Of a DNA stretch of 64,000 nucleotides, positions 3,779-58,505 are shown piece by piece. The notes beneath the pieces were generated by a model that was given only the letters and a program-made list of their open reading frames with translations, did not search any database and had not been told where the DNA came from. Origin of the DNA: Ruminococcus sp. (GTDB lineage Bacteria; Bacillota; Clostridia; Oscillospirales; Acutalibacteraceae); NCBI GenBank assembly GCA_004555265.1, contig SFIQ01000017.1, forward strand, positions 11,431 to 75,430, written 5' to 3'. Position 1 is the stretch's first letter. The number at the start of each line of letters is the position of its first letter. Made by a program: the position numbers and the translations under genes.

Positions 3779-3950
3779 GTCATCCTGCGCGACAGCGAAG
3801 GATCTCACACAGCACAACAAAAACAAGCGTCGGGCGGGGGCTTGCTCCCGCCGTGTAAGCTTGTCATTCCGAGCCGCAGGCGAAGAATTGTCTACCACGA
3901 AAAGTGAATTGGATAAAGCAATTTTGTAGGGGCGATTCACGAATCGCCCG
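3779..3950. repeat. Repeat island A: GTCATCC..GGATCTC unit, GC hairpin, GTCATTCC..GAAGAAT unit, GTAG-hairpin (GGGCGATTCACGAATCGCCC)
   Basis: Every unit recurs elsewhere in the window (for example 18314-18399 and 8158-8183). The region is non-coding and lies between two CDSs. Confidence 0.85.
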
Positions 3951-4038: not shown

Positions 4039-4563
4039 ATGTATACCGTCCGTACATTGAAAATACGCGAACTGCCACTGCTTCTGCGCCTATTTGACTA
4101 CAATAAACCCGTGCAGATGCTCGCCGAAAATACCCGCGGCATAAAAAACAGGAAAATAGATATTTTCGGATTGTTCCGTGACGGAAAGTTAATCGGTGAA
4201 TTGCATGTTAAGTACGAAAGTGCAGACAGCAGGGAAGCTGCACGCGGTACGCGTGCCTATTTGTTTGCATTTCGAATAGAAAAAAATTTTAGAGACAAAG
4301 GTTTCGGAAGGCTTCTTTTAAACCGCGTCATCGAACAGCTTGCCGCCGCAGGCTATACGGAATTTACTGTCGGCGTAGAAACGGATAACGCAATCGCAAA
4401 GCATATTTATGAAATGTTCGGGTTTACGGAATGTATCGCGCAAAAAGAAGAAAGCTATCAGGGCGACACATATGTATATACCCTACTGTTAAAAAAGACA
4501 CGCAGGGAACGACCGGAAATGTGTTCCGCAGAGTTTCAGCAGAATTTGGCGGGCGATTCGTGA
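4039..4563 (+). CDS. GNAT family N-acetyltransferase
   Basis: Start is the ATG at 4039, preceded by GAGGAG (the ORF-track start at 3904 lies inside repeats). It has a GNAT core (FRIEKNFRDKGFGRLLLNRVIEQL...MFGF). The last ~20 codons are repeat-derived. Confidence 0.75.
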   Translation: MYTVRTLKIRELPLLLRLFDYNKPVQMLAENTRGIKNRKIDIFGLFRDGKLIGELHVKYESADSREAARGTRAYLFAFRIEKNFRDKGFGRLLLNRVIEQLAAAGYTEFTVGVETDNAIAKHIYEMFGFTECIAQKEESYQGDTYVYTLLLKKTRRERPEMCSAEFQQNLAGDS

Positions 4564-4621
4564 ATCGCCCCTACCGAGGTTCTTGCAAGCTTGTCATTCT
4601 GAGCCGCAGGCGTAGAATCTC
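4505..4621. repeat. Repeat island B: reversed hairpin doublet ending in GGGCGATTCGTGAATCGCCCCTAC, plus a GTCATTCTGAGCCGCAGGCGTAGAATCTC unit
   Basis: The units match those at 38921-38993 and 18314-18343. Confidence 0.8.
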
Positions 4622-6488: not shown

Positions 6489-6523
6489 GGCATTTTCGCC
6501 CTCGATTGAAAAGGACAGTAAAC

Positions 6524-7960
6524 ATGGCTGAACAAAAGAAAATGGTAGAAGAAATCACCTCAATGGAGGAGGATTTCGCAAAATGGTATACCGATGTCTG
6601 CCGCAAAGCGGAACTGATTGCGTATACCAGCGTCAAAGGCTGTATGGTCATTCGCCCCTACGGCTATGCAATTTGGGAGAATATCCAAAAAGAACTCGAC
6701 AAGCGCTTTAAGGCGCTGGGGCATGAAAATGTCTGTATGCCGATGTTTATCCCCGAAAGTTTGCTCAATAAAGAAAAAGACCATGTCGAGGGCTTTGCGC
6801 CCGAGGTGGCATGGGTGACGCATGGCGGCAACGAGAAGTTGGAGGAGCGCCTTTGCGTGCGACCGACTTCGGAAACCCTGTTCTGTGAGCATTACAAGTC
6901 GATTGTGCAATCCTACCGCGACTTGCCGAAACTCTACAACCAATGGGTTTCGGTGGTGCGTTGGGAAAAAACCACCCGCCCGTTTTTGCGCTCGCGCGAA
7001 TTCCTGTGGCAGGAGGGGCATACCATTCACGCCACCGCCGAAGAGGCGCAGGCGGAAACCGTACAGATGCTGAATGTCTATGCGGATTTTTGTGAAAATT
7101 ACCTTGCCATGCCCGTGGTCAAAGGCGTAAAAACCGAAAAGGAACGCTTCGCCGGTGCGGAGGATACCTATACGATTGAAGCGCTCATGCATGACGGCAA
7201 GGCGTTGCAAAGTGCAACTTCGCACTATTTCGGCGACGGCTTTGCTCGCGCATTTGAAATTCAGTATACCGATAAAGACAACAAACTCAAATTCCCTTTC
7301 CAAACCTCTTGGGGCTGTACCACACGGCTCATCGGCGCGGTGATTATGACGCACGGCGACAACAACGGGCTTGTTCTGCCGCCGAAAGTCGCGCCCACGC
7401 AGGTGGTCGTCATCCCGATTGCCGCGCACAAAGCGGGCGTTACGGAAAAGGCGCAGGAAGTGACAGAACGCATTGCGAAATTCTGCCGCGCGAAAATCGA
7501 CGCAAGCGACAATTCGCCCGGCTGGAAGTTCGCCGAGTACGAAATGAAAGGCGTGCCGCTGCGTTTGGAGTTGGGGCCCAAAGACATCGAGAAAAATCAG
7601 TGTGTTTTGGTGCGCCGTGACAACCGCGAAAAGGTATTTGTTTCTTTGGACGATTTGGAGACCGAAATTCCGCGTTTGTTAGACGCCGTACAGCAGGGAT
7701 TGTACGATGCCGCGCTTGCCCGCCGCGAAAAGATGACCTATACCGCCGCAACGCTTGACGAATTGAAAGATATTGCCGATCATAAACCCGGTTTTATCAA
7801 GGCAATGTGGTGCGGCAGTCGCGAATGTGAGGAAAAACTCAAAGAAGTCGCGGGCATTTCGTCGCGCTGCATTCCGTTCGAGCAGGAACAGATTGCCGAT
7901 ACCTGCGTTTGCTGCGGCAAGCCCGCAAAGCATATGCTCTATTGGGGCAAGGCGTATTAA
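6524..7960 (+). CDS. proS: Proline--tRNA ligase (short archaeal/eukaryote-like type)
   Basis: About 478 aa from MAEQKK. The class II core and C-terminal Zn-type domain ([18 protein letters not shown]) are typical of this ProRS type. Confidence 0.9.
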
Positions 7961-8017: not shown

Positions 8018-8059
8018 GTGTGTAGTATGTAATAAATTGGGGGTTGTAGTGATAATTTT

Positions 8060-8945
8060 ATGCGGTAGGGCGGGGTGATTCCCCTGATAGGGGAAATGTC
8101 TGCGAAGCAGACAAAAGGGTGCCCGAATTCGGAGAATTTTGCTCCCGCCGCCCCGTTGTAGGGGCGATTCACGAATCGCCCGCCGATTTTGATATGATTT
8201 TGGGGAACGCATCTTCGGTTGTTCCCTACTCGTAGGGGCGAACTGTGTTCGCCCGCGTAATTTGATATAATTTTACGGAACGGTCAAGACCGTTCCCTAC
8301 ACGCACGAAATAAAATTTTCAGGGTAGGGCGGGGGCTTGCTCCCGCCGCCCCGTTGTAGGGGCGGGTTTCCACGCCCGCCCGTGAATTTTGATGTGACTT
8401 GCCCCTCCGTCACGCGCTTTGCGCGCGCCACCCGCTGACGGCGGCGGTCTCCCTCTGTCGCTTCGCGACATCTCCCTCACACTGTGAGGGAGTCGACCCC
8501 AACGGTTGTAGGGGCGATTCACGAATCGCCCGCCGTTTCCGCCCCCTCCGAGAGGGGGCTGTCAAATGCGCAGCATTTGACTGGGGGAGAGATTTTTTCA
8601 TTTCTCTCCCTCCGTCTTTTGCCTACGGCAAAAGCCACCCGCTGACGGCGGCGGTCTCCCTCTGTCGCTTCGCGACATCTCCCTCACACTGTGAGGGAGT
8701 CGACCCTCGTTAGAGGGAGGAATAACGGGGCGCCGAGTCGTCGCCCCCTACGCTCAAATTGCATTTTTATTTTTCAATCGGAACGGTCAAGACCGTTCCC
8801 TACACGCACGAAATGCATTTTACAGGGTAGGGCGGGGGCTTGCCCTCGCCGCGGAGTTTGAGGTGGATTAACGGCGGGAGCAAGCCCCCGCCCTACCTAT
8901 TATAACAGACATTTTCCCGAACAGGGGAATCACCCCGCACTACAA
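8060..8945. repeat. Repeat island C: about 0.9-kb mosaic of GTAGGG-headed GC hairpins, doublets, one reversed composite element and two identical 72-bp inserts
   Basis: I hand-counted 12 GTAGGG/CCCTAC heads. The units recur in islands E, F, G and I. The ORFs called here are translations of repeats. Confidence 0.9.
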
Positions 8946-8980
8946 TTATTCATCATTCATTCTTCATTCTTCATTTCTTC
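8931..8980. repeat. Left arm of an inverted repeat bracketing the cohesin-dockerin island (CACCCCGCACTAC-AATTATTCATCATTCATTCTTCATTCTTCAT)
   Basis: It matches the reverse complement of 18246-18292 at roughly 85% over about 45 nt (aligned by eye). Confidence 0.6.
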
Positions 8981-9275
8981 TCTGCCGCCCACAAATTGTC
9001 CTGGCGAAAACCGATTTCCACAACATGTTGGGGAAATCTCTGAAAATCGCAAAAACGGCAAAAAAACCGTTCTAAAAATCAACGAAATTGCGAAAAATGT
9101 TGAAAAATGCGGCGACGTTGTTCAAAAACCCGTCGAAAAGTTGGCGAAAACGAAAAGTTCACAATTTGTTCATAATATTTCAACAAAACTGCCAATTTTC
9201 TTTCTGCAAAATGCCCAAAAACCACAAAAATATTTGGGCAATTCATAAAAAAGAGTGGAAAACATGAATAATTTA

Positions 9276-9304
9276 TTGACTTTTTTTTCTGAAAATTCTA
9301 TAAT
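9276..9304 (+). promoter_or_regulatory. Consensus sigma-70 promoter (TTGACT-17 nt-TATAAT)
   Basis: TTGACT at 9276-9281 and TATAAT at 9299-9304, preceded by about 250 bp of A-tract-rich DNA. Confidence 0.75.
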
Positions 9305-9679
9305 TTGAGTAACCATAGGAATGGTGTAATGGGGCGAAGTGCCTACTTTTTTAAGGGGGCAGTGTGTCTCCCTCGAAAAATGTGCGCTTCGGCAGCTCAT
9401 TTTGATACACATCCTACGGTAATATTTGCTCGGGTGTGTATCATCTGTCTTCCGCCGGTTTTTGTTTTAAAAGCGGAAGCGGTGGAGGACGAACCGAGTA
9501 ACCCGTAGCGCTTTAGCGGAACCCTTCCGACGCGGTGTTCACTCGCGCGGATTGGTCAGAGGCGGAAACTATGGCGCGCAAAACAAGTCGGCGAGTGTGC
9601 CCCGCGCCGACCGCGTAATACGGGGCACGGAATGCATTATACATATTGTAATGCAAAACTAAATAGGAGGAAAACACTT
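9305..9679 (+). promoter_or_regulatory. Long (~375 nt) structured 5' leader of the giant dockerin gene; candidate cis-regulatory RNA of unknown class
   Basis: Helices at 9404-9414/9432-9442, 9449-9455/9473-9479 and 9633-9639/9649-9655. An interleaved pair (9587-9593/9605-9611 and 9597-9604/9621-9628) suggests a pseudoknot or a switch. Confidence 0.45.
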
Positions 9680-12600
9680 ATGAAAAAGTCTACAAAATTG
9701 TTAAGTGTCATCTTAGCAATTGTCATGCTTTTCTCATGCATGTCGGTTATGGCTTCGGCATATCAAGCGTATGACGACAGCCAGGAAGCCGTGTATACGT
9801 CAAACGATACCGGCTTGGCTATGCTTTTGACCGATGAGCAGAGAGCCTCTTGGTTCTGCGACACAGTTAACGGCCTTTTGGCAAGTGTTAACATTAAAGC
9901 AAGCGTTCCCGTTGTCGGTACCATCGACTTTACAAGCCTTGACGCTACTTGCGATACTCTCGCAAGCCTGAAAGGTCTTATCGGATTCATGGGTATCGGT
10001 CTGGACCTCGGTATTATCGAACAACTCGATTTGTCCACCATCGACGGTAACGAGTCTGTCAACAACGCTGTCAATATGGTTGACGAACTCATTGTGTTCG
10101 TAGACAAAAACGTCGACACTTTGGGCAACGTCATCGGCAGCGGCGTTAGCTTCGGTATCTTGGGCGGCGCTATCCCCGTTGATTTGACCGCAGTTAACGA
10201 GATTCTTGTAAATCTTGACGATTTCCTGAAAGGCACCATCTACGGCCTTGGCGCGCGCAAGCTTACAGGCGGCATCGGTGACGATCCCGCTTTGCCGAAC
10301 GCACCGCTTTGGAAAGATATGGCTTCCAAGCCCACCTTGGACAAAATCGTGAAGGATTTGCTTGTGAACCTGTTGACCACACCGCGTCATACGGAAAACA
10401 TCACCGATCCTTCCCAGAACTTGATTTGCACCGATCCCACAACTTACGGCGCAACTGCCGCGATGATTCACACCGAAAAGGCTGTGGATTCCGCAGGCAA
10501 CCCCGTTTTGGATGAAAACGGCAATCAGGTAACATGGTACTATATTTACGGTACACTGCTTGCTGACGGCACATGGAAGTTTACAGAGACTTCAACCGCA
10601 AGCAACGGCACCGACGACAAAAACTACATCACGCATTGGGATGAAGATAGCTGCCTGCTGAAGAATTTCGATAAATCAATTCTTGATTTCGAAACCAAGA
10701 CCTTGTATCAGATGCTCGGCGACGCGCTTCCGTGGGCGTATAACACCTTCGGCGCACCGAACCTTGACGGTCAGCTTCGTGCAACCATCATGCAGTTCTG
10801 CGGCGCGATCAACAGAGCGGTAACCGATGAAGCCATCACCGCGCAGTTGAAAGAGAAAGTGCTTGCATATCAGGCAATCGAAGACAACGGCGCTGCGAAT
10901 GGCAGAGCACTCCTCAGCGACGCTATGGAAGCGAAAGTCGGCGAAGCCGGTAACTACAACTTCCAGTACATCTCGCTTTCCGGCAAAGACATCAACACCA
11001 TGCCCGATGACCTGTACTATGTGGTACAGTGGGGCGACGGTTGGGAATTCTACCATGTTGACTTCACACAGATGGCAGGCGAAAAGCTTGAACTCTTCAA
11101 GATGCTCAACTGGGAATGGCAGGCTCCGGCTTGGTCCGAAATTATGCCGACCTTGGATTCCACCAGTGATTCTTATCTTCGCAACATTACCGATGCGATC
11201 GGTAAAATCCTGAATAAGGCTGTTGTGAACCTCGAATGGACTTATGACAGCGGCTCTGAAGACAATGCGCACTTTGAATCGAATGTAATGGGCTTGGTAC
11301 GCAAAGTTCTCAAAACTGCGCCCAACCTCATCTACGGTAAGAACGACGCTTACAAAGCAGAAGCAATCGACACCCAGACCGACGAACAGGTTATCGCGGT
11401 TCTCGGCGTGGATATCATCGAGTGGCTCATGCCCTCTATTGTAATTCCGGCCGATGTGGATTGCCTTGAAGCGATTGTTGTTTACGGCGTCCGCGAGTTC
11501 ATTGCGGAAATCCTGCCCGAATACAACTGGGATACCCAAATCAAAGCGGCTTCGACCGATGAAGATTATCTGAACATCGCTTTGGATATGGGTGCTTCTA
11601 TCGGCGTTTACTATTTGAAGAACGTGATGGGTCTCGGCACCACGACGAACGGCAGCGGTACCACGACTTACACTTCACCCGACCAGTACATCGCGCCCAG
11701 CACAGATTGCGCAACCGGCTGGAACACGAAGTTGAACTACATTGTGGATACCCTCCTTCAATTGTGGGTTCCCGATCTGACTTCGAAGATCGTTTCCAGA
11801 AACGCGACTGTCATGAACGGCACTGACGCGCTTGACAAACTTTCCATCATCTTCAATGCCTTGTTCCCCGGTCTTCTTTCCTTGATTTCCGGGTGCGACG
11901 CTACCATCGGTAACGGCACCAACAAGGCTTGCACAGTTGACCTCAAAGTAGTGAAGGATCTCCTTGCAGGTATCCTTGACCTTCGAATTGAGCCGATTGC
12001 TGCAAAACTGTACAGAAACTCCACCGGTTACGGCAACAAACAACTTTACAACGCAGTTGTAAATATTTTGATCGACCTTACAACCGGCCTTGGTTTCAAT
12101 GACTCTCCTGACTATGCAAACTTGGTAACCTCTTTGAACAACGCTTTGAAAGCAACCAATCCGTTGGATTACTTGGTTACCAATGCAAACCTCAAAGTGA
12201 CCGTGAAGAACCTTCTCTGGTCCATCACGGATGACGCCAACAAGGGCATGTGGGTACAGGATCTTCTCGCGATCCTCATGCAGGTGACCGGCAAGATGGA
12301 CGATATGGTCCTCAAGGGCATCAATCAGACCATCGACCAGTTCAAATATGTTGGTTCAACAACACCCACAATCAAAACACAGATTACCCTTGATACCGAC
12401 GGTCTGAAATCCGTTTGGTATGACGGCGGTTACCGCAGCGGTAACTTCGTACAGGACGGTGCATATTCAGGTCTTTTGAAAAAGCTTGAAATCGTTGACC
12501 TTGAAGGCAACGTTGTTGCAACAAAGGATCTCAATGTTACATTGAATCCCAACGAAACATACGAGACAACAATCACAGGTGTTGCAAGCACCGACGCGGC

Positions 12601-14944
12601 GGCTTACACGCTGAAGTCTTATGTTATCGTTACCTTGCCCGACGGCACCACGAAGGCAAACAACGGTGAGCCCATTGTGACCACCTCGAACTTCATTACC
12701 GCCGCGGCGGCACAGGACGATACCGTGAACATGGTTACCGTTTTGAACAAAGTCGGTCCGAATAACGACGTTACCGCAAAGATGTGGAACATCTATGTTG
12801 ATGAAAACACACCGCTCTCGGCAATCGAAGGCTACAAGATGTATGTTGGTACAACTTCTGCAAAAGCGCGTAAGCTCTACATCTCCGGCTTCGGTTACCT
12901 GGACTTGAACGCTGACGGCTCCGTCTCCTTCCGGGCTGACCAGGCAAACGCTTTCACTTGGACAAAGAAGGTTTACGAAGAAGGCAAATCCGCCGTTACT
13001 TCCACTATCAAACCGGCAGACTGTGCAACACCGGTTGCAGGCGGCGTTCCGGCGTTCTGGAAATGGAACAACGACTATTCAGGCACCGAGTTCGGTACAA
13101 ACAAAGACTGGTCCGAGATGAACAGCCAGCAGTACGCAGTTGATAAAGTAAACTTCAACCGTGCTATGTATTCTGCTGACTTCACCGTATTCGCATTTAC
13201 AGCCAAGGTAACCGTTTGGTGCTATAATAACGCGTTTAGCAAACCCACGAAGGAGGTTGACTTCACTTCACAACCTTCTTTGATCTTCTACAACTCCTAC
13301 GGACTTGAAGGTCTCATTCAGAGAGCGTTGAACTCCAACAGAGTTGCTGCAGACTACACAACCGAGTCCTGGAACGCTTACATTGCCGCTTTGAAAGCCG
13401 CAATCGCAGAGTTCTACATGGCAAAATCAGCCGCGACCTTCGTTTCTGACCACCAGACGAACGGCATCTCCGACTTCAAGACCGCAGGTGAAAACCTCAC
13501 GGCGGCGATTGAAGGCTTGGTGGCAGTGACCGAGTCTGCGTCCTCCGCGACCGATTACACGGCTGAAGAAAAAGCAGTTCTGAATTCCTTGAAGGCTACG
13601 CTTGACGCCCAGGGCAAAAAGGAAAACCTCAACAACAAGAACTACATTATGTATCGTTGGCTGAAATACTACAATGAGTATGCTTGGCTCAACGGCATTT
13701 ACGACAACGCACAGATTCCTTCGGGCGTTGCGGACAGCAAACTGACAGGCGTTCCGTCTGACAAAATCACAACCGCTATCGCAGCAGCACCCGAAAACAA
13801 ACAGGGCGCGTTGAACGCCATGGTTGTAGCACCCACCGAGGAAGAATCCGCAGCAGCAGCAAAAGCAAGAGCAGACTTCCTTGAAAATCTGCCCACGCTT
13901 GACCTGACCTCTATTCAGGTTGACATGGCACAGATGGCACAGTATGAATCTCGCTTGATTGCGCGTTCGCCGGCAACCTATTATTTGAATGACGCCTATA
14001 AGATGGCAAATGCCATTACCGATCCCGCCGCTTACACGGCTGAATCTTGGACGAAATTCAATACGGCAAGAACTGCGGCTTACAATGTTTCGGCGGATCC
14101 CACTTCGACTCCGGCTGAAATTCACGAAGCGAGATATAACCTTCTTGTTGCTTACAAGGCTTTGACGAAGGCAGGCACCGATGTTGACCTCACCGCACTT
14201 CGTGATGTGATGGCGTATGTTGACACCATCTGCGCAAATCCGACCTTGTTCCAGCCCACAGCGGCTTCCGGCTACAAAACCCTCGATGAAGCGCTCGCAG
14301 CTGTATTCGCAGAAGCAGGCGTGAAAGTAACTGTCGGTAAAGACACTTACTACATCGGCGGCGGCGACACCGGCGCAGCTTGGCTCGACGAAGCAGGCAT
14401 GAGAACTGCACTCGAAGGACAGGAAACAGTTGACCGCGTTGTCAAAGAAATCAAAGCAGAACTTGCAAACATCGAGAGCACCATTAAGGTTGTTCCCAAT
14501 GATACGGTTGCGGACAACACCACAACGGTTGACTATGCAAACCTGATTGTTGACGGCATTAAACCCGGCACAATCAACACCACCGCTGAACTCCTTGCGC
14601 TCGTGAAGACCACCGCGCCGGCAGGCTACACTGCAAACCTTGCAGTTACCGCTTCCGCGGCAAACGGCTTCGGTACCGGCACAAAGGTTGTTCTGACCGT
14701 GAACGGCATTGACGGCTTTGAAATCAACCACACCGTTATGGTTTACGGCGATGTGAACGGCGACGGCGCAATCGACGCATTCGACGCTGCACTCATCAAC
14801 ATGAACGTAACCGGCGCGTCGGCTCTGACCGGTGACTTTGCAACGGCAGGCGACACAACGGCTGACGGTGCGATCAACGCATCTGACTATGCCGCAGTTG
14901 CAGCCTATGCAATCGGTGCAGGCACCATCGCACAGACTCGCTGA
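9680..14944 (+). CDS. Giant secreted protein (1,754 aa) with a C-terminal dockerin; the N-terminal ~1,150 aa are unassigned
   Basis: ATG at 9680 after AGGAGG. Signal peptide MKKSTKLLSVILAIVMLFSCMSVMASA. FIVAR-like helical repeats (YTTESWNAY.., YTAESWTKFNTARTAAY..). Dockerin repeats DVNGDGAIDAFD and DTTADGAINASD. Confidence 0.9.
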   Translation: MKKSTKLLSVILAIVMLFSCMSVMASAYQAYDDSQEAVYTSNDTGLAMLLTDEQRASWFCDTVNGLLASVNIKASVPVVGTIDFTSLDATCDTLASLKGLIGFMGIGLDLGIIEQLDLSTIDGNESVNNAVNMVDELIVFVDKNVDTLGNVIGSGVSFGILGGAIPVDLTAVNEILVNLDDFLKGTIYGLGARKLTGGIGDDPALPNAPLWKDMASKPTLDKIVKDLLVNLLTTPRHTENITDPSQNLICTDPTTYGATAAMIHTEKAVDSAGNPVLDENGNQVTWYYIYGTLLADGTWKFTETSTASNGTDDKNYITHWDEDSCLLKNFDKSILDFETKTLYQMLGDALPWAYNTFGAPNLDGQLRATIMQFCGAINRAVTDEAITAQLKEKVLAYQAIEDNGAANGRALLSDAMEAKVGEAGNYNFQYISLSGKDINTMPDDLYYVVQWGDGWEFYHVDFTQMAGEKLELFKMLNWEWQAPAWSEIMPTLDSTSDSYLRNITDAIGKILNKAVVNLEWTYDSGSEDNAHFESNVMGLVRKVLKTAPNLIYGKNDAYKAEAIDTQTDEQVIAVLGVDIIEWLMPSIVIPADVDCLEAIVVYGVREFIAEILPEYNWDTQIKAASTDEDYLNIALDMGASIGVYYLKNVMGLGTTTNGSGTTTYTSPDQYIAPSTDCATGWNTKLNYIVDTLLQLWVPDLTSKIVSRNATVMNGTDALDKLSIIFNALFPGLLSLISGCDATIGNGTNKACTVDLKVVKDLLAGILDLRIEPIAAKLYRNSTGYGNKQLYNAVVNILIDLTTGLGFNDSPDYANLVTSLNNALKATNPLDYLVTNANLKVTVKNLLWSITDDANKGMWVQDLLAILMQVTGKMDDMVLKGINQTIDQFKYVGSTTPTIKTQITLDTDGLKSVWYDGGYRSGNFVQDGAYSGLLKKLEIVDLEGNVVATKDLNVTLNPNETYETTITGVASTDAAAYTLKSYVIVTLPDGTTKANNGEPIVTTSNFITAAAAQDDTVNMVTVLNKVGPNNDVTAKMWNIYVDENTPLSAIEGYKMYVGTTSAKARKLYISGFGYLDLNADGSVSFRADQANAFTWTKKVYEEGKSAVTSTIKPADCATPVAGGVPAFWKWNNDYSGTEFGTNKDWSEMNSQQYAVDKVNFNRAMYSADFTVFAFTAKVTVWCYNNAFSKPTKEVDFTSQPSLIFYNSYGLEGLIQRALNSNRVAADYTTESWNAYIAALKAAIAEFYMAKSAATFVSDHQTNGISDFKTAGENLTAAIEGLVAVTESASSATDYTAEEKAVLNSLKATLDAQGKKENLNNKNYIMYRWLKYYNEYAWLNGIYDNAQIPSGVADSKLTGVPSDKITTAIAAAPENKQGALNAMVVAPTEEESAAAAKARADFLENLPTLDLTSIQVDMAQMAQYESRLIARSPATYYLNDAYKMANAITDPAAYTAESWTKFNTARTAAYNVSADPTSTPAEIHEARYNLLVAYKALTKAGTDVDLTALRDVMAYVDTICANPTLFQPTAASGYKTLDEALAAVFAEAGVKVTVGKDTYYIGGGDTGAAWLDEAGMRTALEGQETVDRVVKEIKAELANIESTIKVVPNDTVADNTTTVDYANLIVDGIKPGTINTTAELLALVKTTAPAGYTANLAVTASAANGFGTGTKVVLTVNGIDGFEINHTVMVYGDVNGDGAIDAFDAALINMNVTGASALTGDFATAGDTTADGAINASDYAAVAAYAIGAGTIAQTR

Positions 14945-14950
14945 GTTCTC

Positions 14951-15110
14951 AAATTGTAGGGCGGGTTATGCGCCCGCCCCGTAGGAAAACGCACTTCTCA
15001 ACCGCCCCACTCGTGGGGAGGCGGCACGCCGTCAGGCGTGCCGGAGGGGCGCGGGCGAATGCAATTCGCCCCTACAAACACAAACCGCATTGTGCAACCC
15101 ACAATGCAAC
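14951..15110. repeat. Repeat island D: chain of at least 5 GC hairpins directly after the giant gene stop (two are GTAG/CTAC-headed)
   Basis: Examples are GGCACGCC-GTCA-GGCGTGCC (15024-15043), GGGCGAATGCAATTCGCCCCTAC and GCATTGTG..CACAATGC. Confidence 0.8.
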
Positions 15111-15321
15111 CCGCGTCTTGCGCTTCTCCGGTGCAAGCGAGGGAAACAAAAGAAAGACTTCGCCGCCGCGGATTTTCCGCGCGGGTATAATGTGCATATA
15201 CTCCCTCGGCAAGGCGTGTTTCTGTTGAAGTCACCACACTGTTTGCGTCCTTGATTTTCAGAGTGATAGCTGACAATCAATCCGCACAGCAGAACAAAGC
15301 TTGTCGCAGAAAAATTTTCTG

Positions 15322-15350
15322 TTGACTTTTTGCCGCGGAAACTGTATATT
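15322..15350 (+). promoter_or_regulatory. Sigma-70 promoter (TTGACT-17 nt-TATATT, with TG directly abutting the -10 hexamer)
   Basis: It shares the GTTGACTTTTT -35 context with the promoter at 9276 and sits about 30 nt upstream of the ATG at 15380. Confidence 0.65.
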
Positions 15351-15379
15351 ATATGGGAAGAAAATATAAGGAGGATATT

Positions 15380-16462
15380 ATGACAAAAGCTAAAAAAGTA
15401 TTAAGCCTTGTTTTAGCTGTTGTTATGGTTGCTGCGATGTTTGCATTCTCGGCTTCGGCCGCTACGCAGAATGCAACCTTCACCGTTTCCGTTGATAATG
15501 CGACTGTTTCGCAGAACGATGTTATCACTGTTACGGTGAACTTGACAACGGATTATTATGCCGGCCCGACCAATGTTCCGGTGTATTACAATCCCGCAGT
15601 CTTTGAATTCGTCGCAGGCTCTGTTACCGGTGCCAAAATTTTCGGCGAAGGTGCAACAGATGTGCAATCCTATAACGACGCTGTTACAGGCTGCTTGAAA
15701 GTGGCTTTCATCCCCAACACGGCTGGCACCGCTGCCGCAAAGCTTCTGAACGGGACTTTGTTCACTTTCCAGTTAAAAGCGATTGCTGACGGCACTTCCG
15801 ACATCGGCTTGAAAGCTGAAGACCAGAAGACGGCAACCAACATCGGCGGTACTTTGTACTGCGGTGCTTACACTTCTTCTGCGATTGACAACAATCCGGC
15901 TACTGTTGGCCAGACCTTTGCAATCACCAACACTTCTGCTACCGTTGGCGCTACTGCGGCTCCTGAACTTCAGTTGTCCGAAACCGGCGCGGCAAACGGA
16001 GCGGTTATTGACAGAGTTTCTACTTGCAATGATGGCGTTGGTTTCGTGTACGGCATTGCAACTCATGAGGGCGAAATGATTTCGGACTATTTGACCACGC
16101 CCGCAGGTAGCATTCAAGTTGTCGCGAATGACCAAGGGAATGAATCCACTGGTACGTTGATTCAATTGCTTGACGATGGTGGAAATGTGGTTGAAACCTA
16201 CATTTTCGTTCTCTTTGGCGATGTAAATGGCGACGGTGCAATTGATAGTACTGATGTTACAGATATTGAATCCGTTGCTATGTATTTAAATACTGACAAC
16301 TATGCTGATGATGGTACAGCATGGAGTATAGCTGCTGATACCAACGGCGATTCCTCAATTGACAGTACTGATGTTACAGATGTGGAAGGTGTCGCAATGT
16401 ACACCGTGTCCACAACACAGGCTGAATTTGCAGCCGCCTTTGTAAGTGGCAAAGGCATTTAA
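15380..16462 (+). CDS. Secreted cohesin-like module protein with a C-terminal dockerin (adaptor-scaffoldin-like)
   Basis: AAGGAGG RBS and signal peptide MTKAKKVLSLVLAVVMVAAMFAFSASA. The cohesin-like pattern is TFTVSVDNATVSQNDVITVTVNL..YYNPAVFEFV..LFTFQLKAIADGTSDI. The dockerin repeats are DVNGDGAIDSTD and DTNGDSSIDSTD. Confidence 0.8.
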   Translation: MTKAKKVLSLVLAVVMVAAMFAFSASAATQNATFTVSVDNATVSQNDVITVTVNLTTDYYAGPTNVPVYYNPAVFEFVAGSVTGAKIFGEGATDVQSYNDAVTGCLKVAFIPNTAGTAAAKLLNGTLFTFQLKAIADGTSDIGLKAEDQKTATNIGGTLYCGAYTSSAIDNNPATVGQTFAITNTSATVGATAAPELQLSETGAANGAVIDRVSTCNDGVGFVYGIATHEGEMISDYLTTPAGSIQVVANDQGNESTGTLIQLLDDGGNVVETYIFVLFGDVNGDGAIDSTDVTDIESVAMYLNTDNYADDGTAWSIAADTNGDSSIDSTDVTDVEGVAMYTVSTTQAEFAAAFVSGKGI

Positions 16463-16494
16463 TTTAATCAACTATTCTAGGAGGACATTACGAA

Positions 16495-17712
16495 ATGGCA
16501 AAAGCTAAAAAAATTCTGGCTCTTTTATTGTCAGTAATCATGCTTATTGCTGCGTTCTCTTCTGTTGTTTCTGCGGCATACACTTCCTACACTCCCACCT
16601 TGACGAGCGGTGATTTAAAAATCATACTCCGTGCGGATAAAACGGAAGTGAATCCCGGCGACACAGTCACATTTGACATGTTTGTTGACACAACATTAAC
16701 TGACCTTGGTACAGCGCAGTTTGTTGTTTCATACAATAGTGCTCAGGCTGCGCCTGGTGCATCAGCAATTGCAGATATGAGAACGTTCAATGATGTTTGG
16801 GAATATTGGTTTGACCCGGCATCATCAGGCAATACGAACTTGGCGGGTACAATTGCATTGGCAACCGCAACAGATTATGATAATAAAACAAAAATCAATG
16901 CGTCTGCTGAAGATAAGGCATACTTTGATAAAGCAGTCATGATTGGTACAAAGGCGAATACGGGTAATGGTGTTACTAACACAGTTGGTAATGGTTGGAA
17001 TGCAGATCCGGCTGTTTCCGTGTTGACCTTCAAAATGAAAATCAACGACACCGTTACACCCGGTGAAAAGATTTTTATTGGTTATCACTCCCAATCTTGG
17101 TCCGGTAAAGCACCGAAAGCATACATCGCTCAGGCGGGTGGTGCAAAAGTGCGGTACACCAATTGCGATTTGTCTGAGGCTATGGTTGAATTGACTGTTG
17201 CTTCTGCAGGCCCCGCTGTTGCGAAGTCCAAGGCACAGGTTAAGATGACCCCGAACAGTGCTACCACTGTTGAGGATGCATTCAGCTTCCGTGTAACTTC
17301 GGTTATTGCCGATGCGGATTGGGATACCTACTTCGCAAACTCCGCGGATGCTTCCGCAACCACCAAAGCAATTAAATCCGTTGGCTTCGTTGCTTACAAA
17401 GGCACCACCGGCTTCAACCTCGACACTGCAAAAGCAGTGGCACAGGGCTCTTCGGCTGTCGGCTATGATGTTGCGACCACCGATTACATCCAGAAAGCGA
17501 ATGACACTTCGGATGCATTCTTCGGCTGCCGTTTGGAAATTACAAGCGCCGCAACGCGTTCCGACGTGACCTATGTTGCGTTCGTTCAGTATTTGGATGC
17601 TACGGGCAACACCGCTTATGCGTTCTATGATGCTGAACAGCAGGCTCTCCTGAATACGAATTATAATAACATCGTTTCCACTTACCTTCTTGCTCATCCC
17701 TTTGCTGGCTGA
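16495..17712 (+). CDS. Secreted protein with a divergent cohesin-like module and an unassigned C-terminal domain
   Basis: AGGAGG RBS and signal peptide MAKAKKILALLLSVIMLIAAFSSVVSA. The cohesin-like segment is GDLKIILRADKTEVNPGDTVTFDMFVDT..AQFVVSYNS..VLTFKMKINDTVTPGEKI. I see no dockerin, SLH or LPXTG. Confidence 0.65.
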   Translation: MAKAKKILALLLSVIMLIAAFSSVVSAAYTSYTPTLTSGDLKIILRADKTEVNPGDTVTFDMFVDTTLTDLGTAQFVVSYNSAQAAPGASAIADMRTFNDVWEYWFDPASSGNTNLAGTIALATATDYDNKTKINASAEDKAYFDKAVMIGTKANTGNGVTNTVGNGWNADPAVSVLTFKMKINDTVTPGEKIFIGYHSQSWSGKAPKAYIAQAGGAKVRYTNCDLSEAMVELTVASAGPAVAKSKAQVKMTPNSATTVEDAFSFRVTSVIADADWDTYFANSADASATTKAIKSVGFVAYKGTTGFNLDTAKAVAQGSSAVGYDVATTDYIQKANDTSDAFFGCRLEITSAATRSDVTYVAFVQYLDATGNTAYAFYDAEQQALLNTNYNNIVSTYLLAHPFAG

Positions 17713-17727
17713 TAAGGGCTCGGTAAC

Positions 17728-17859
17728 TTGAAAACTTTGCAAAACAAACCGTATTCTGCGCCGGAGTTTGAATATGTTGCTTACGAGCAAATCGAGGCGG
17801 TTACGATTAATATCAGCAAAGACCTCGAAAATGACCGTGACGCAGTTATCGTTTGGTAA
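17728..17859 (+). CDS. Candidate mini-ORF 1 (43 codons, TTG start): ..KPYSAPEFEYVAYEQIEAVTINISKDLENDRDAVIVW
   Basis: It is below the ORF-track cutoff. It has no ATG and only a weak AAGGG SD. The only support is its similarity to the next mini-ORF (Y-[ST]-A-P-x-F-[ED]..Y-[ED]..T). Confidence 0.3.
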   Translation: MKTLQNKPYSAPEFEYVAYEQIEAVTINISKDLENDRDAVIVW

Positions 17860-17895
17860 AAATTATAATTCGATTTTGAAAGGAGAAAACTTCAG

Positions 17896-18018
17896 ATGAA
17901 ACAGGTTTATACTGCACCTGCGTTCGATGTTTCAGTCTATGATGTTGACGATATTATCACACTTTCCATCGGCACCGGCCCCGTTGACGGCGGCGACGAA
18001 GGTTGGGTAGAAATCTGA
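17896..18018 (+). CDS. Candidate mini-ORF 2 (40 aa): MKQVYTAPAFDVSVYDVDDIITLSIGTGPVDGGDEGWVEI
   Basis: ATG with AGGAG 10 nt upstream. It is the last ORF before the strong terminator, and it is acidic with Trp near the C-terminus. Confidence 0.5.
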   Translation: MKQVYTAPAFDVSVYDVDDIITLSIGTGPVDGGDEGWVEI

Positions 18019-18080
18019 GTTTCTCCCAAGCGTGTTCGTTTACATCTTCGTATAACGCGAACGATTTGTAAAACAACAGG

Positions 18081-18115
18081 GCAAGGCAAGGGTTTATCCC
18101 TTGCCTTGCTTTTTT
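18081..18115 (+). terminator. Strong intrinsic terminator closing the cohesin-dockerin operon
   Basis: A perfect 12-bp stem (GCAAGGCAAGGG/CCCTTGCCTTGC) with a 5-nt loop and TTTTTT. Confidence 0.85.
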
Positions 18116-18159
18116 GCGTGCAGGTTACGGTGAAAATCCACGCTTGCAAAGCAATACGC

Positions 18160-19065
18160 GCGTAGGGGGCGACGAGATTCCCCTGTTAGGGGAAATGTCG
18201 AGCGGCGACAAAGGGGTAATGGCGCAGCCGTAACTCGCCGACCCGAAAATGATGAATAATGAAAAATGAATAATGAAAAATTGTAGGGGTGAACTGTGTT
18301 CGCCCGCCCGCTTGTCATTCTGAGCCGACAGGCGAAGAATCTCGTTTCGTATATTTTTATTTTGCGCTATTGGAGATCCTTCGCTTCGCTCAGGATGACA
18401 AATTTGGGTTTGTAGGGCAAACGCATTCTATTTCTTGCGTAGGGGGCGACGACTCGGCGCCCCGTTTGTAGGGGCGGGTTTCCACGCCCGCCCGTAGATT
18501 TTGATGTGATTTTGCGGAACAACACGGAGGTTGTTCCCTACTCGTAGGGGCGAACTGTGTTCGCCCGCATAATTTGATATAATTTTGCGGAACTGTCAAG
18601 ACCGTTTCCTACGATTGTAGGGGCGATTCACGAATCGCCCGCCGTTTCCGCCCCTCCGAGAGAGGGCATAAGCGGCGAGAGCAAGCCCCCGCCCTACCAT
18701 AGAAATTCCATTTCATGCGTAGGGGGCGACGACTCGGCGCCCCGTTTGTAGGGGCGGGTTTCCACGCCCGCCCGCCAATTTTGATGTGATTTTGCGGAAC
18801 AACATGGAGGTTGTTTCCTACTCGTAGGGGCGAACTGTGTTCGCCCGCGTAATTTGATATAATTTTGCGGAACGGTCAAGACCGTTCCCTACGGGTTGTA
18901 GGGGCGATTCACGAAATTTCGTGCGTAGGGGGCGCCGAGTCGTCGCCCCCTACGCTCGCATTACAGTTTGCCCGTTCCGTAATTCAAAGCAAATCCCGCG
19001 GCGGGAGCAAAATTCTCCGAATTCGGGCACCTTGCGGCGGGGGCAAGCCCCCGCCCTACCCTAAT
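18160..19065. repeat. Repeat island E: about 0.9-kb mosaic of GTAGGG-headed hairpins, including a 280-bp-offset tandem duplication
   Basis: I hand-counted 17 GTAGGG/CCCTAC heads. Doublets lie at 18468-18541, 18544-18612, 18748-18821 and 18824-18892. There is a GTCATTCTGAGC../..CAGGATGAC inverted pair at 18314-18399. Confidence 0.9.
18246..18292. repeat. Right arm of the inverted repeat bracketing the island (AAAATGATGAATAATGAAAAATGAATAATGAAAAATTGTAGGGGTGA)
   Basis: Its reverse complement aligns with 8931-8980. Confidence 0.6.
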
Positions 19066-19292
19066 CCTGTATTTCGTTTGTTCCAAAAACACCCCCCACA
19101 ACCCCCAATTTAACTTCAACCTTTCGCAACCGTGGGTGGTTGTTGGGGCGCACGCACCTTGGAGGCACAGCACAAAAACGAGCCAAAACACAACATCTTG
19201 TGCCCGAAAAACGGAGTAGAACTATAAAAAATCCAAAATTTTTAAAATCGAAAAAATTTGTTTGGATTCACGAATTTTTTTGAAAAAAATTG

Positions 19293-19641: not shown

Positions 19642-19959
19642 ATGGCAGCAGCAAAAGGCAAGAAAATCCGTATCAGACTGAAAGGCTATGACCACGATTT
19701 GGTGGACAGAGCAGCCGAGAAAATCGTTGAAACCGCAAAGCGCACCGGCGCACAGGTTTCCGGTCCCGTGCCGCTTCCGACCGAAAAAGAAGTCGTAACC
19801 ATTCTTCGCTCCGTTCACAAAGACAAAGACAGCCGCGAACAGTTTGAACAGAGAACGCACAAACGGCTCATCGACATCCTCAGACCTTCAAACAAGACCG
19901 TTGAAGCTCTGACCGGCCTTGAGCTTCCCGCAGGCGTAGACATCGAAATTAAACTGTAA
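19642..19959 (+). CDS. rpsJ: 30S ribosomal protein S10
   Basis: 105 aa with ..[11 protein letters not shown]... First gene of the S10-spc-alpha cluster. Confidence 0.97.
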
Positions 19960-20025
19960 TCTCGGTAGAAACGCTTACAGGTCATGTTGGCAACCGCCAA
20001 CCAATAACCAAAGGAGGAATACACA

Positions 20026-20658
20026 ATGCAAAAAGGTCTTATCGGTAAAAAAATCGGCATGACACAGCTTTTTGACGAGAACGGCAAGGTTATCCCCGTG
20101 ACCGTCGTAGAAGCAGGTCCGTGCGTCGTTGTCCAGAAAAAGACAACGGAAAATGACGGCTATGAAGCCGTTCAGGTTGGCTTCGGTGATGTCAAAGTCC
20201 AAAGAGTGAACAAGCCGCAGGCAGGTCACTTCAAAAAGGCAGACGTTGCACCGAAAAAGGTACTCAAAGAGTTCAGACTGGACGATTGTTCCGCGCTGAA
20301 CGTCGGCGACATTCTCAAAGCAGACGTGTTCGCTGTCGGTGACAGAGTGGATGTTGTCGGCACCAGCAAAGGTAAGGGCACCGCGGGCGCAATCAAGCGC
20401 TGGAACTTCTCCCGCTTGAAAGAAAGCCACGGTACCGGCCCTGTTGCACGCCACGCAGGTTCCTTGGGCGCTTGCTCCGACCCCTCCCGCGTTTACAAGG
20501 GGAAGAAGCTCGCCGGTCACTTGGGCGCTGAGCGTGTGACCATTCAAAATCTCGACATTGTCAAGGTTGACGCAGAAAACAACCTCATCGCCATCAAGGG
20601 CGCCATTCCGGGCCCCAAAGGCGGCATCGTTGTTCTCGCCGATACGGTGAAAAAATAA
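20026..20658 (+). CDS. rplC: 50S ribosomal protein L3
   Basis: 210 aa with [14 protein letters not shown]. Conserved operon position. Confidence 0.97.
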
Positions 20659-38543: not shown

Positions 38544-39180
38544 TAGATTAGTGGCGTAGCCGCAATCCTTATATTCCTCCCTCTGGGAGGGAGGTGGCAC
38601 GCGCAAAGCGCGTGACGGAGGGAGAGAGAAAATATCTGCTTGTTTCTCTCCCCCAGTCAAATGCTGTGCATTTGACAGCCCCCTCGTCAGAGGGGGCGGA
38701 AACGGCGGGGGTAAAATTCTCCGAATTCGGGCACTTTGCGGCGGGGGCAAAATTCTCCGAATTCGGACACCCTTTTGTCTGCTTTGCAGACATTTCCCCT
38801 ATCAGGGGAATCACCCCGCCCTACCCTGAAAATTTTATTTCGTGCGTAGGGAACGGTCTTGACCGTTCCGCGAAATGACATCGCTTTTTTTCGGGCGAAC
38901 ACAGTTCGCCCCTACGATTCGTAGGGAACGACCTAAGTGTCGTTCCGCAAAGTCACATCAAATGCACGGGCGGGCGCGGAGACCCGCCCCTACAACGGGG
39001 CGCCGGGTCGGCGCCCCGTTGTTCCTCCCTCTTAGAGGGAGGTGGCTTTTGCCGTAGGCAAAAGACGGAGGGAGAGAGGAAATATCTGCTTGTTTCTCTC
39101 CCCCAGTCAAATGCGTTGCATTTGACAGCCCCCTCTCGGAGGGGGCGGAAACGGCGGGGGCAAGCCCCCGCCCTACCGTA
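38544..39180. repeat. Repeat island F: two copies of the multi-hairpin composite element (38544-38709, 39023-39158) plus reversed GTAG hairpins
   Basis: It is near-identical to 58151-58319 and 41458-41589. I hand-counted 6 GTAGGG/CCCTAC heads. Confidence 0.9.
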
Positions 39181-41054: not shown

Positions 41055-41615
41055 TAAATTGGGGTTTGTGGGGCAAATGCATTTCACCTGGTAGGGCGGG
41101 GGCTTGCTCCCGCCGTCAATTCACATCGAACCCTGCGGCGGGGGCTTGCCCCCGCCCTACATGCACACGATTGATTTTATGTGTAGGGGCGATTCACGAA
41201 TCGCCCGCAAGGCTTGATGTGATTTTGCGGAACAACACTAAGGTTGTTCCCTACGAATCGTAGGGGCGAACTGTGTTCGCCCGCCTAATTGTCATTCTGA
41301 GCCGTTAGGCGAAGAATCTCGTTCCGCTCGGGTTTATTTTGTGCTATTGGAGATCCTTCGCTATCGCGCAGGATGACAAATTGGGGTTTGTGGGGATATT
41401 AACGGAACGGGCAAACTGTAATGCGAGCGTAGGGGTCGGCGTCTCGACGACCCGTTATTCCTCCCTCTGACGAGGGAGGTGGCTTTTGCCGCAGGCAAAA
41501 GCCGGAGGGAGAGAAACGGAAAAAATCTCTCCCCCAGTCAAATGCTACGCATTTGACAGCCCCCTCTCGGAGGGGGCGGAAACGGCGGGCGATTCGTGAA
41601 TCGCCCCTACGGTTG
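41055..41615. repeat. Repeat island G: GTAG hairpins, a doublet (41183-41254), a GTCATTCTGAGC../..CAGGATGAC inverted pair (41291-41377) and a composite element (41458-41589)
   Basis: The same unit families occur in islands C, E, F and I. I hand-counted 7 GTAGGG/CCCTAC heads. Confidence 0.9.
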
Positions 41616-56009: not shown

Positions 56010-56306
56010 GGTACCTCGCGTACCTTTGTACGCGTCGCCGTCGGGAAAATGCACACTGCATCAAAATCTTACGCTACGCCGAGGATCGCGTGTGCCGGCT
56101 GTTTGTCGCATTTTTCCCCGCAATCTTGCGTACCTTTGTACGCGTCGGCAGTGCAAAAAGCCACCATACAACCAATCTTACGCTACGCCGAGGCTCGCGG
56201 GCGAACGCAGTTCGCCCCTACAAAGCGTAGGGGCGAAAACACATCGAATCTACGGGCGGCCGAGGTCGTCCGCCCCTACAAACGGGCGCGCGATGCACGC
56301 CCCTAC
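56010..56306. repeat. Repeat island H: ~110-bp tandem duplication followed by reversed CCCCTAC-tailed hairpins
   Basis: GCGTACCTTTGTACGCG occurs at 56018 and 56128, and AATCTTACGCTACGCCGAGG at 56065 and 56174. CCCCTAC tails end at 56221, 56278 and 56306. Confidence 0.85.
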
Positions 56307-58150: not shown

Positions 58151-58505
58151 TTTAGATTAGCGGCGTAGCCGCAATCCTTATATTCCTCCCTCTGGGAGGG
58201 AGGTGGCTTTTGCCGTAGGCAAAAGACGGAGGGAGAGAGGAAATATCTGCTTGTTTCTCTCCCCCAGTCAAATGCTGTGCATTTGACAGCCCCCTCTCGG
58301 AGGGGGGCGGAAACGGCGGGAGCAAGCCCCCGCCCTACCCTGTAAAATGCATTTCGTACGCAAACCGCAAAAAAGATGTAATTTATTACGGGTCGTCGAG
58401 GACGTCGACCCCTACGCGTTGTCATTCTGAGCCGATAGGCGAAGAATCTCGTGTCGTATATTTTTGTTTTGTGCTTTTGGAGATCCTTCGCTTCGCTCAG
58501 GATGA
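58151..58505. repeat. Repeat island I: composite multi-hairpin element (58151-58319), GC hairpins and a GTCATTCTGAGC../..CAGGATGA inverted pair (58421-58505)
   Basis: It is near-identical to 38544-38709. Its last unit overlaps the yhbY start region. Confidence 0.9.

Follow-up and report, generated by a model that had tools for sequence, protein, structure and literature searches.

A conserved cohesin–dockerin gene cassette of gut Oscillospirales, a putative non-enzymatic surface display system

The 64,000-nt stretch of a Ruminococcus sp. genome analyzed here (contig SFIQ01000017.1; referred to as the window) contains three co-oriented genes on the + strand, bounded by proS (6506–7960; identified by TIGR00408, E 2.5e-181) and the ribosomal genes rpsJ/rplC (19642–20658). 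The genes encode a giant dockerin protein (A), an adaptor (B) and a protein with a divergent cohesin (C), and are followed by two mini-open reading frames (mini-ORFs 1 and 2; m1 and m2 in gene orders). This operon probably specifies a three-tier, non-enzymatic cohesin–dockerin display system. In the proposed mechanism, C would be exported and kept on the cell envelope by a conserved 170-aa C-terminal module, its N-terminal cohesin-like domain would capture the X-dockerin of B, and the B cohesin would capture the dockerin of A. The acidic, 186-kDa A would thus be presented at the surface, most likely as an abundant S-layer-like coat or adhesin. A would be expressed from a consensus promoter with a structured leader, and B, C and the mini-ORFs from a promoter of their own (P2). 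An initial annotation, made from the DNA letters alone, had proposed a single unit that codes for cargo, adaptor and scaffold-like partner, a proposal now supported by domain matches together with comparative and population data for the chain A–B–C.

Signal peptides are present in all three proteins. A comprises 1,754 aa, its mature form being Ala/Thr-rich with a mass of 186 kDa and an isoelectric point of 4.4. The signal peptide (aa 1–28) is followed by a mostly helical domain (aa ~29–870), a beta-sandwich region (aa ~877–1198) and a C-terminal part consisting of a helical region, an X-like beta module and a type I dockerin (aa 1689–1743; nt 14744–14908). The dockerin matches Pfam Dockerin_1 (PF00404) over residues 1689–1743 with 41.6 bits against a cutoff of 22.9 (E 1.4e-10), in line with the secreted, dockerin-terminated protein originally described, and PDB dockerins are matched both by single-sequence search and by the family profile. 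Searched against the PDB, this profile matched nothing except the dockerin. The conserved start of A lies at 9680 (MKKSTKLLS); the ATG at 9632, which opens the longest in-frame reading frame (MHYTYCNAKLNRRKTL...), was rejected as it is not conserved and falls inside the hairpin preceding the ribosome-binding site (RBS).

B consists of a signal peptide, a cohesin (nt ~15482–15802), an X module and an internally symmetric (duplicated) dockerin (nt ~16217–16378); the signal peptide, a cohesin-like module and the dockerin had been noted initially. Its cohesin scores 28.3 bits against a cutoff of 24.1 (Pfam PF00963, residues 44–150). The dockerin falls just under the PF00404 cutoff (22.6 versus 22.9 bits); both of its DxNGDxxIDxxD calcium loops are canonical, the PDB dockerin 2ccl_B is matched by phmmer (E 7e-4), and homologues in L002 (related loci are given L numbers) reach 31.9 bits. 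The gene was present as first annotated, with its start moved to the ATG at 15380, which has an AAGGAGG at 15368; the in-frame ATG at 15353 sits in the −10 box of P2 and was rejected.

C carries a signal peptide, a hypervariable cohesin-like domain (aa ~28–235; nt 16576–17199) and the C-terminal module (aa 236–405; nt 17200–17709). At the sequence level no match to C was obtained in Pfam (E ≤ 5), NCBIfam or the PDB, so the divergent cohesin proposed initially finds its support at the level of fold. In an AlphaFold2 model built with 38 homologues (predicted local distance difference test, pLDDT, 87.8), the N-terminal ~200 residues superpose on solved cohesins, which dominate the Foldseek list for the PDB (probability 1.00, E 1e-7 to 4e-5). 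The best match is 2w1n, the GH84C cohesin-FN3 of Clostridium perfringens, and further matches include 5lxv, 4n2o, 4wkz, 2vn5, 2zf9 and 4dh2; the target-normalized template modeling score (TM-score) reaches 0.70, for cohesin 2vn5 of C. cellulolyticum. This domain is thus predicted to be a cohesin by fold, a nine-stranded jelly roll, and not by hidden Markov model (HMM).

Searches of A, B, C and the mini-ORFs against Pfam and NCBIfam returned only the dockerins and the B cohesin. The initial annotation had seen no glycoside hydrolase (GH), carbohydrate-binding module (CBM), SLH or LPXTG module, and indeed none of these, nor a FIVAR domain, was detected in A, B or C at E ≤ 1 in these two databases, where no known carbohydrate-active enzyme (CAZyme) or adhesin domain covered the unassigned parts either. 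Furthermore, CAZymes were found neither in the neighboring genes of 10 related loci nor in the cassettes there. A dockerin-bearing enzyme or CBM cargo, the feature that would mark a cellulosome or amylosome, was accordingly seen neither in A, B and C nor at these 10 loci.

The cassette is a fixed, conserved locus with fast-changing content. A total of 969 homologues of A were found, mostly 1,680–1,870 aa long and down to ~25% identity, one of them labeled ‘Candidatus Fimenecus’. When contigs were scanned for signal-peptide/dockerin patterns, about 6 of the 27 loci picked were true relatives of A. Every related locus examined has, besides A, a C-type gene and an open reading frame of 38–42 aa, and most have a B-type gene; the genomes in question are labeled Fimenecus, Ruminococcaceae, Ruminococcus, Oscillospiraceae and Clostridiaceae, and the identity of A falls to 24–38%. 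In L035 and L036 the cassette is kept between proS and the S10 operon. In L004 proS is again the immediate upstream neighbor, but the other side is taken by a two-component system, not the S10 operon; here ProS is 90% identical to that of the window, A aligns only partly (24–29% identity), B has 46% identity, C is unalignable in its N-terminal part, and the C-terminal module of C and mini-ORF 2 are 69% and 80% identical, respectively. An accessory island, a possibility raised by the initial description of a self-contained gene island, is contradicted by this comparison, as the same cassette occupies the same site in relatives. A mobile island was rejected on the synteny in L035 and L036 and an unremarkable GC content, despite repeat arrays at both flanks. 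The abundant species represented by L005 has a GC content of 46%, compared with about 41% in Ruminococcus bromii, and was on these grounds not identified with it.

The pairing of cohesins and dockerins was approached through variation within one species. An exact-pattern scan of metagenome contigs for the leader RNA of A returned at least ~115 copies of the locus among the matches listed, and these include 49 complete cassettes of one abundant human-gut species, whose modules were clustered at 90% identity. The N-terminal domain, helical region, X module and dockerin of A and the cohesin of B each form a single type, and the C-terminal module of C is likewise fixed. The beta-sandwich region of A falls into 7 freely assorting types, and the B dockerin and the cohesin-like domain of C into 10 and 11 types, respectively, which correspond one-to-one with a single exception. 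Amino-acid diversity steps sharply at the domain borders (Table 1). The polymorphism of the joint between the B X-dockerin and the C cohesin and of the beta-sandwich region of A within the species suggests diversifying selection. Gene order points in the same direction as the types: a symmetric X-dockerin of the B type is encoded immediately before C in all three gene architectures observed. In L001 and L033, A carries a copy of the X-dockerin of B and C follows directly; in L003, A has a B-type dockerin followed by C, with no B within the region examined. L033 has the order A-C-m1-m2 and then B-C'-m1-m2, with two copies of the C–mini-ORF block that share 95% nucleotide identity. The A dockerin of the window has recognition helices (AFDAALINM and ASDYAAVAAY) that differ from that of the B dockerin (STDVTDIESVAMY, present twice), which points to two specificities. 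From type co-variation, diversity borders and gene order, the most economical assignment would be a conserved pair, in which the A dockerin binds the B cohesin, and a diversifying matched pair, in which the B X-dockerin binds the C cohesin.

Such a variable joint could serve as a device of kin discrimination or privatization, strain-specific pairs of B X-dockerin and C cohesin docking A–B complexes only on cells with the same allele; alternatively, it could help the cell escape phages or antibodies for which the joint is a receptor. The 10–11 discrete matched types in one species with fixed flanking modules, and the hypervariability across species of the N-terminal domain of C beside a near-invariant C-terminal module, would suit this idea. 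Nevertheless, physical linkage alone can yield matched types, and phages or antibodies would more obviously target the distal cargo than a joint inside the chain. The idea is rated as somewhat unlikely, and it would refine the three-tier model rather than replace it.

The C-terminal module of C offers a candidate for the anchor. Its ~170 residues form a separate beta-sandwich in the model and are near-invariant across homologues whose N-terminal domains defy alignment. No SLH, LPXTG/sortase, CWB2 or LysM element was recognized in C by Pfam or NCBIfam, and the protein ends in ...AHPFAG with no C-terminal transmembrane segment; to this extent anchoring is as unexplained by known modules as first noted. 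However, when 1.84 billion representative proteins were searched exhaustively with HMMER, the module proved rare, occurring in only 119 clusters, and it stands at or a few residues from the C-terminus in nearly all full-length matches (the main exception being a weak match, P0376). Most carriers are C-like proteins of 380–450 aa, and the longer ones are BspA-type leucine-rich repeat (LRR), right-handed beta-helix/Cthe_2159-like, GLUG and subtilase-LRR proteins. As it ends proteins of surface type, the module may well be a new domain for anchoring to the wall or envelope, or for sorting, judged by its position and domain company.

Protein A itself may have a new fold. An AlphaFold2 model of residues 29–1200 (85 homologues; pLDDT 86, predicted TM-score 0.69) shows a mostly helical body of ~840 residues with small beta inserts, followed by beta-sandwich domains. 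Foldseek searches of this region against the PDB and BFVD matched only beta-sandwiches (arrestin-, RbmA- and WxLIP-like; query-normalized TM-scores ~0.1) and gave no structural relative of the helical body, which makes the 840-residue domain a candidate for a new fold on the strength of the predicted model. The only S-layer structure among the matches, SbsC (4uj6; E 2.2e-3, probability 0.57), is not meaningful. The codon adaptation index (CAI) of A is 0.72, comparable to ribosomal genes (0.70–0.78), with other genes at 0.63 ± 0.06. Together with the consensus promoter and the location beside the S10 operon, this hints that A is highly expressed; the acidity and Ala/Thr-rich composition of A are further coat-like features. 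The best guess is that A is an S-layer-like coat or an adhesin, a reading drawn from the consensus promoter, the long structured leader, the repeat hairpin directly after the stop codon of A, the adjoining S10 operon, the apparent single copy of A per locus examined and the fast divergence between close relatives. That A is specifically an abundant S-layer-like coat is a tentative proposal and on balance doubtful.

The same chain could instead present A as an adhesin that binds a substrate or host, with the polymorphic beta-sandwich region as its ligand-binding tip, which would put A alongside the non-catalytic dockerin proteins found in the R. bromii amylosome, or alongside CttA of R. flavefaciens. 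The tandem beta-sandwiches indeed resemble RbmA and WxLIP, which are of matrix or adhesin type, as well as arrestin-like double sandwiches, and within the species represented by 49 cassettes the variation of A is concentrated in this region. Moreover, R. bromii amylosomes hold many dockerin proteins without known function (PMC12663171; PMC4611034). On the other hand, HMM searches detected no CBM, lectin, LRR or known adhesin domain in A, the TM-scores are low, and the species group of the window itself lacks a clear concentration of variation in the beta-sandwich region, so a dedicated adhesin of this kind is considered unlikely.

Several observations weigh against the three-tier display system as a whole. 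The codon bias of B and C is ordinary (CAI 0.60 and 0.63, respectively), which misfits an abundant coat assembled 1:1:1. A contains 12 cysteines and has no similarity to known S-layer proteins. The B dockerin and C cohesin are adjacent on the DNA, where one recombination block could by itself have matched their types. The family profile of C reaches type II cohesins of the PDB only below threshold (E 0.07), and the C-terminal module matches no known wall-binding or anchoring family. Finally, the mini-ORFs have no role in the model.

Conservation in the leader of A greatly exceeds that of A. The initial annotation under-rated this leader, having recorded its presence and a length of 375 nt (here ~370 nt) and missed that it is a conserved structured RNA. 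Invariant blocks occur in loci whose A is only ~25% identical to that of the window, among them UAACCAUAGGAAUGGUG at the 5' end, GAUACACAUCC...GGGUGUGUAUCAUC, and GGUCAGAG (9554–9561). An invariant helix (GAUACACAUCC/GGGUGUGUAUC) spans 9404–9445; further helices covary, and a hairpin lies just before the RBS. The core of the leader spans 9310–9565. RNAalifold and pair counting across 16 diverse leaders gave 34 pairs in 5 helices, with 96% of cells paired, compared to 37–49% in slid controls, and a covariation score of 0.228 versus 0.05–0.08. Out of 500 shuffles, none reached the observed percentage paired, the cells changed on both sides or the covariation score; 19 reached the observed count of pairs changed on both sides. 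The window leader has a minimum free energy of −143 kcal/mol (z-score −5.4). One 5' strand (CUUCCGCCG) can pair with either of two adjacent 3' partners, and compensatory changes in both alternative helices suggest that a conformational switch is possible.

Rfam 15 gave no match at the gathering threshold in the whole window, and only chance-level matches at E ≤ 10 on 9250–9720. In the exact-pattern scan, the leader pattern lies 180–260 nt upstream of an A-type start codon (MKKSTKLLS...) in nearly all loci examined among the matches listed, the exceptions there being about five chance matches and a few contigs that stop short of the gene. The leader RNA therefore appears specific to A-type genes. 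It is a candidate for a new class of cis-regulatory RNA, and probably controls or stabilizes the mRNA of A, as judged from conservation and covariation. A GGGC/GCCC hairpin with a U-run at 9332–9350 was rejected as an early terminator, being not conserved and unable to form in L002. A helix with a U-rich loop overlapping these positions seems to covary by eye and stands outside the helices counted.

Both promoters of the cassette were recovered as first annotated. P1 precedes A and is kept in position and sequence in all aligned loci; P2 shares with it the −35 context GTTGACTTTTT. The ~120 nt 5' of the −35 box of A are likewise kept across distant loci (e.g., GTTCACAATTTGTTCAT and TGAATAATTTATTGAC), which suggests candidate binding sites for a dedicated regulator.

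The unit closes with the two mini-ORFs and the strong terminator reported initially; what had been under-rated is mini-ORF 2, the most conserved coding element of the cassette. It encodes 40 aa (MKQVYTAPAFDVSVYDVDDIITLSIGTGPVDGGDEGWVEI), is very acidic, lacks a signal peptide, has an N-terminal YxxPxF motif and always follows C. Where A is 24–38% identical, mini-ORF 2 is 59–80% identical. Its homologues form 31 clusters of 39–43 aa. The codon differences counted are synonymous in 831 cases, no fewer than the 749 nonsynonymous ones, which indicates that a coding sequence is under purifying selection. It matched no family in Pfam or NCBIfam. Some lineages only (L007, L033/L034 and L035; weaker in L002) have mini-ORF 1, which is related to mini-ORF 2 in a looser, paralogue-like way.

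The conserved core of the locus could accordingly be read as C plus mini-ORF 2, a module resembling peptides that are made by the ribosome and modified post-translationally (RiPPs). The YxxPxF leader would be bound by a RiPP recognition element (RRE) of PqqD type, an HprK-like kinase and an S24-like peptidase would mature the peptide and an ATP-binding cassette (ABC) transporter would export it, the product being a ligand, receptor or signal for the C-terminal module of C or a regulator of the operon. Apart from the constant position, conservation, purifying selection and missing signal peptide of mini-ORF 2, this possibility draws on the resemblance of its motif to the YxxPxL leader motif recognized by the RREs of lasso peptides (PMC10368454), and on genes for ScmC/HprK-like, PqqD-family, S24-like peptidase and ABC exporter proteins that directly follow mini-ORF 2 in L002, L006 and L061 (53–58% identity between the three). 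Conversely, no such block occurs in the window or beside the cassette in most loci. A lasso precursor has YxxPxL at −17 to −12, Thr at −2, a ring acid at core position 7–9 and B and C maturation enzymes; in mini-ORF 2 the spacing of YxxPxF is off by 2, the ring acid fits only some homologues, and no cyclase or B2 protease was found. A RiPP-like role of mini-ORF 2 is thus a lead and not a finding, and the corresponding view of the locus is decidedly unlikely.

Compared with known systems, the cassette is a cohesin–dockerin assembly with several undescribed components. A close likeness is to the sca cluster of R. flavefaciens, where the genes are also clustered, a single-cohesin adaptor with a dockerin (ScaC) resembles B, a single-cohesin anchor (ScaE) resembles C, and an X module precedes the anchor-binding dockerin (ScaB); in fact, the model of C matches the ScaC, CohG and ScaE cohesins (5lxv, 4n2o, 4wkz, 2zf9). 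However, ScaE is anchored by a sortase LPXTG motif, whereas C has the 170-aa C-terminal module instead; dozens of CAZymes are organized there as opposed to one giant non-enzymatic cargo here; and the cassette combines an adaptor/anchor joint that is hypervariable within a species with a leader RNA and a micropeptide gene. The amylosome of R. bromii (Sca1–5) belongs to the same order of gut Clostridia and likewise displays proteins by cohesin–dockerin pairs at the surface, many of its dockerin proteins having no known function (PMC4611034; PMC12663171), but its anchors use sortase motifs, and no GH13 or CBM26/48/74 is present here. As far as the accessible literature extends, which is incomplete, neither the cassette nor the leader RNA and micropeptide are described in work on this amylosome or in a 2026 AlphaFold survey of ruminococcal cohesins, consistent with the undescribed extracellular assembly system that had been suspected.

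The two-step hierarchy with two separate specificities recalls C. thermocellum, where the type II X-dockerin of CipA binds SdbA, OlpB or Orf2p and the chain ends in an anchoring protein whose C-terminal part binds the wall; there, anchoring is by SLH repeats, none of which were detected here, and the primary scaffoldin has many cohesins and carries enzymes. Toxin and glycosidase complexes of C. perfringens show that cohesin–dockerin pairs are used outside plant-fiber degradation, and provide the best structural match to C (2w1n); their partners, however, are enzymes or toxins with known catalytic domains, without an adaptor/anchor hierarchy or hypervariable joint. A final parallel is found in the slpA cassette types of Clostridioides difficile. 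There, one abundant acidic surface protein per genome is expressed from a strong promoter with a long 5' leader, exposed variable parts are combined with conserved anchoring parts, and discrete allelic cassettes are exchanged within the species. In contrast to such S-layers, the cassette has no SLH or CWB2 module, attachment would be by cohesin and dockerin, and variability peaks in the joint and is not confined to the distal cargo.

It is most improbable that the locus forms an ordinary amylosome or cellulosome branch, with B and C as minor scaffoldins mainly for enzymes encoded elsewhere and A as one of many cargoes: cohesin and dockerin modules do define such systems, R. bromii of the same order and other Ruminococcus use them for enzymes and only 64 kb of the genome are in view, but A, B (usually), C and mini-ORF 2 travel together in the lineages examined, the A dockerin is conserved together with the B cohesin, the leader RNA goes specifically with A, and no CAZyme lies in or beside the cassette at any locus examined.

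Cohesin–dockerin systems have been understood mainly as organizers of enzymes for fiber or starch, and here the same joints would be devoted to a single giant non-enzymatic protein, whose cassette is conserved among abundant Clostridia of the human gut. If the three-tier display system is real, it would represent a new surface-coat or adhesin architecture in poorly cultured gut bacteria and a natural library of orthogonal matched cohesin–dockerin pairs (10–11 types in one species) for synthetic scaffolds and the study of specificity evolution. It would further provide a candidate cell-wall anchoring module that also occurs in surface proteins of LRR, beta-helix and protease type, a new helical fold of 840 residues, a candidate cis-regulatory RNA class and a conserved micropeptide. 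The fullest reading, a widespread, unrecognized surface system of gut Oscillospirales that joins a novel-fold coat, a kin-discriminating lock, a new wall anchor, a riboswitch-like leader and an exported RiPP-like anchor partner, is improbable in its entirety.

Table 1. Features of the cassette and its surroundings in the window, with amino-acid diversity along B and C and gene blocks at related loci.
Feature	Position	Strand	Basis or remark
Promoter-upstream conserved region	9153–9275	+	blocks common to loci with A only 25–40% identical to that of the window
P1, sigma-70-type promoter	9276–9304	+	TTGACT-17-TATAAT; 11/12 consensus positions match
Leader RNA	9310–9679	+	alignments, pair counting, minimum free energy z-score
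Gene A	9680–14944	+	ATG 9680, AGGAGG RBS at 9666; 1,754 aa
REP-type hairpins, A–B spacer	14956–14979; 15047–15075	+; −	pattern matches
P2, promoter	15322–15350	+	TTGACT-17-TATATT; same −35 context as P1
Gene B	15380–16462	+	AAGGAGG RBS at 15368
Gene C	16495–17712	+	405 aa; AlphaFold2 and Foldseek, alignments
Mini-ORF 1	17728–17859	+	43 aa, TTG start; homologues in some lineages
Mini-ORF 2	17896–18018	+	40 aa; conserved homologues
Intrinsic terminator	18081–18115	+	12-bp GC-rich stem, then TTTTTT
REP-like arrays either side of cassette	8050–8950; 18140–19070		~1 kb each
Further REP-like sites in window	3926–3949; 4548–4574; 14956–15075 (two copies); 38893–39176; 41091–41610; 56199–56306; 58305–58338		
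Diversity, 49 cassettes	B residues 1–200		≤ 0.05
Diversity, 49 cassettes	B residues 201–368 (X module and dockerin)		0.22–0.54
Diversity, 49 cassettes	C residues 1–220 (signal peptide and cohesin)		0.36–0.72
Diversity, 49 cassettes	C residues 221–374		≤ 0.07
Duplicated C + mini-ORF 1 + mini-ORF 2 blocks	L033:6177–7637; L033:10001–11461		after A with X-dockerin; after B
Mini-ORF 2 + PqqD/HprK-like/peptidase/ABC block	L002:16021–19598; L006:14920–18514; L061:8342–11750		

Elements resembling repetitive extragenic palindromes (REP) are scattered through the window and form dense arrays, each element with a GTAG head followed by a GC-rich hairpin (e.g., GTAGGGGCGATTCACGAATCGCCC); the pattern has 47 matches in the window compared with 0.27 expected by chance. 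The hairpins in the A–B spacer may act as a 3' stabilizer or partial terminator for the A transcript, a role suggested by their placement. Two families of unannotated membrane-anchored proteins absent from the window accompany the cassette at other loci. One is a protein of 234–257 aa encoded directly upstream of A (L004:5591–6295, L005:5243–5959 and L001:6345–7085). The other comprises tandem 310–345-aa proteins of the type MAKKEKI..TPEE.., which end in Y(S/T)NF.Y or YSDFQY (L002:5064–7184 and L033:11935–13879).

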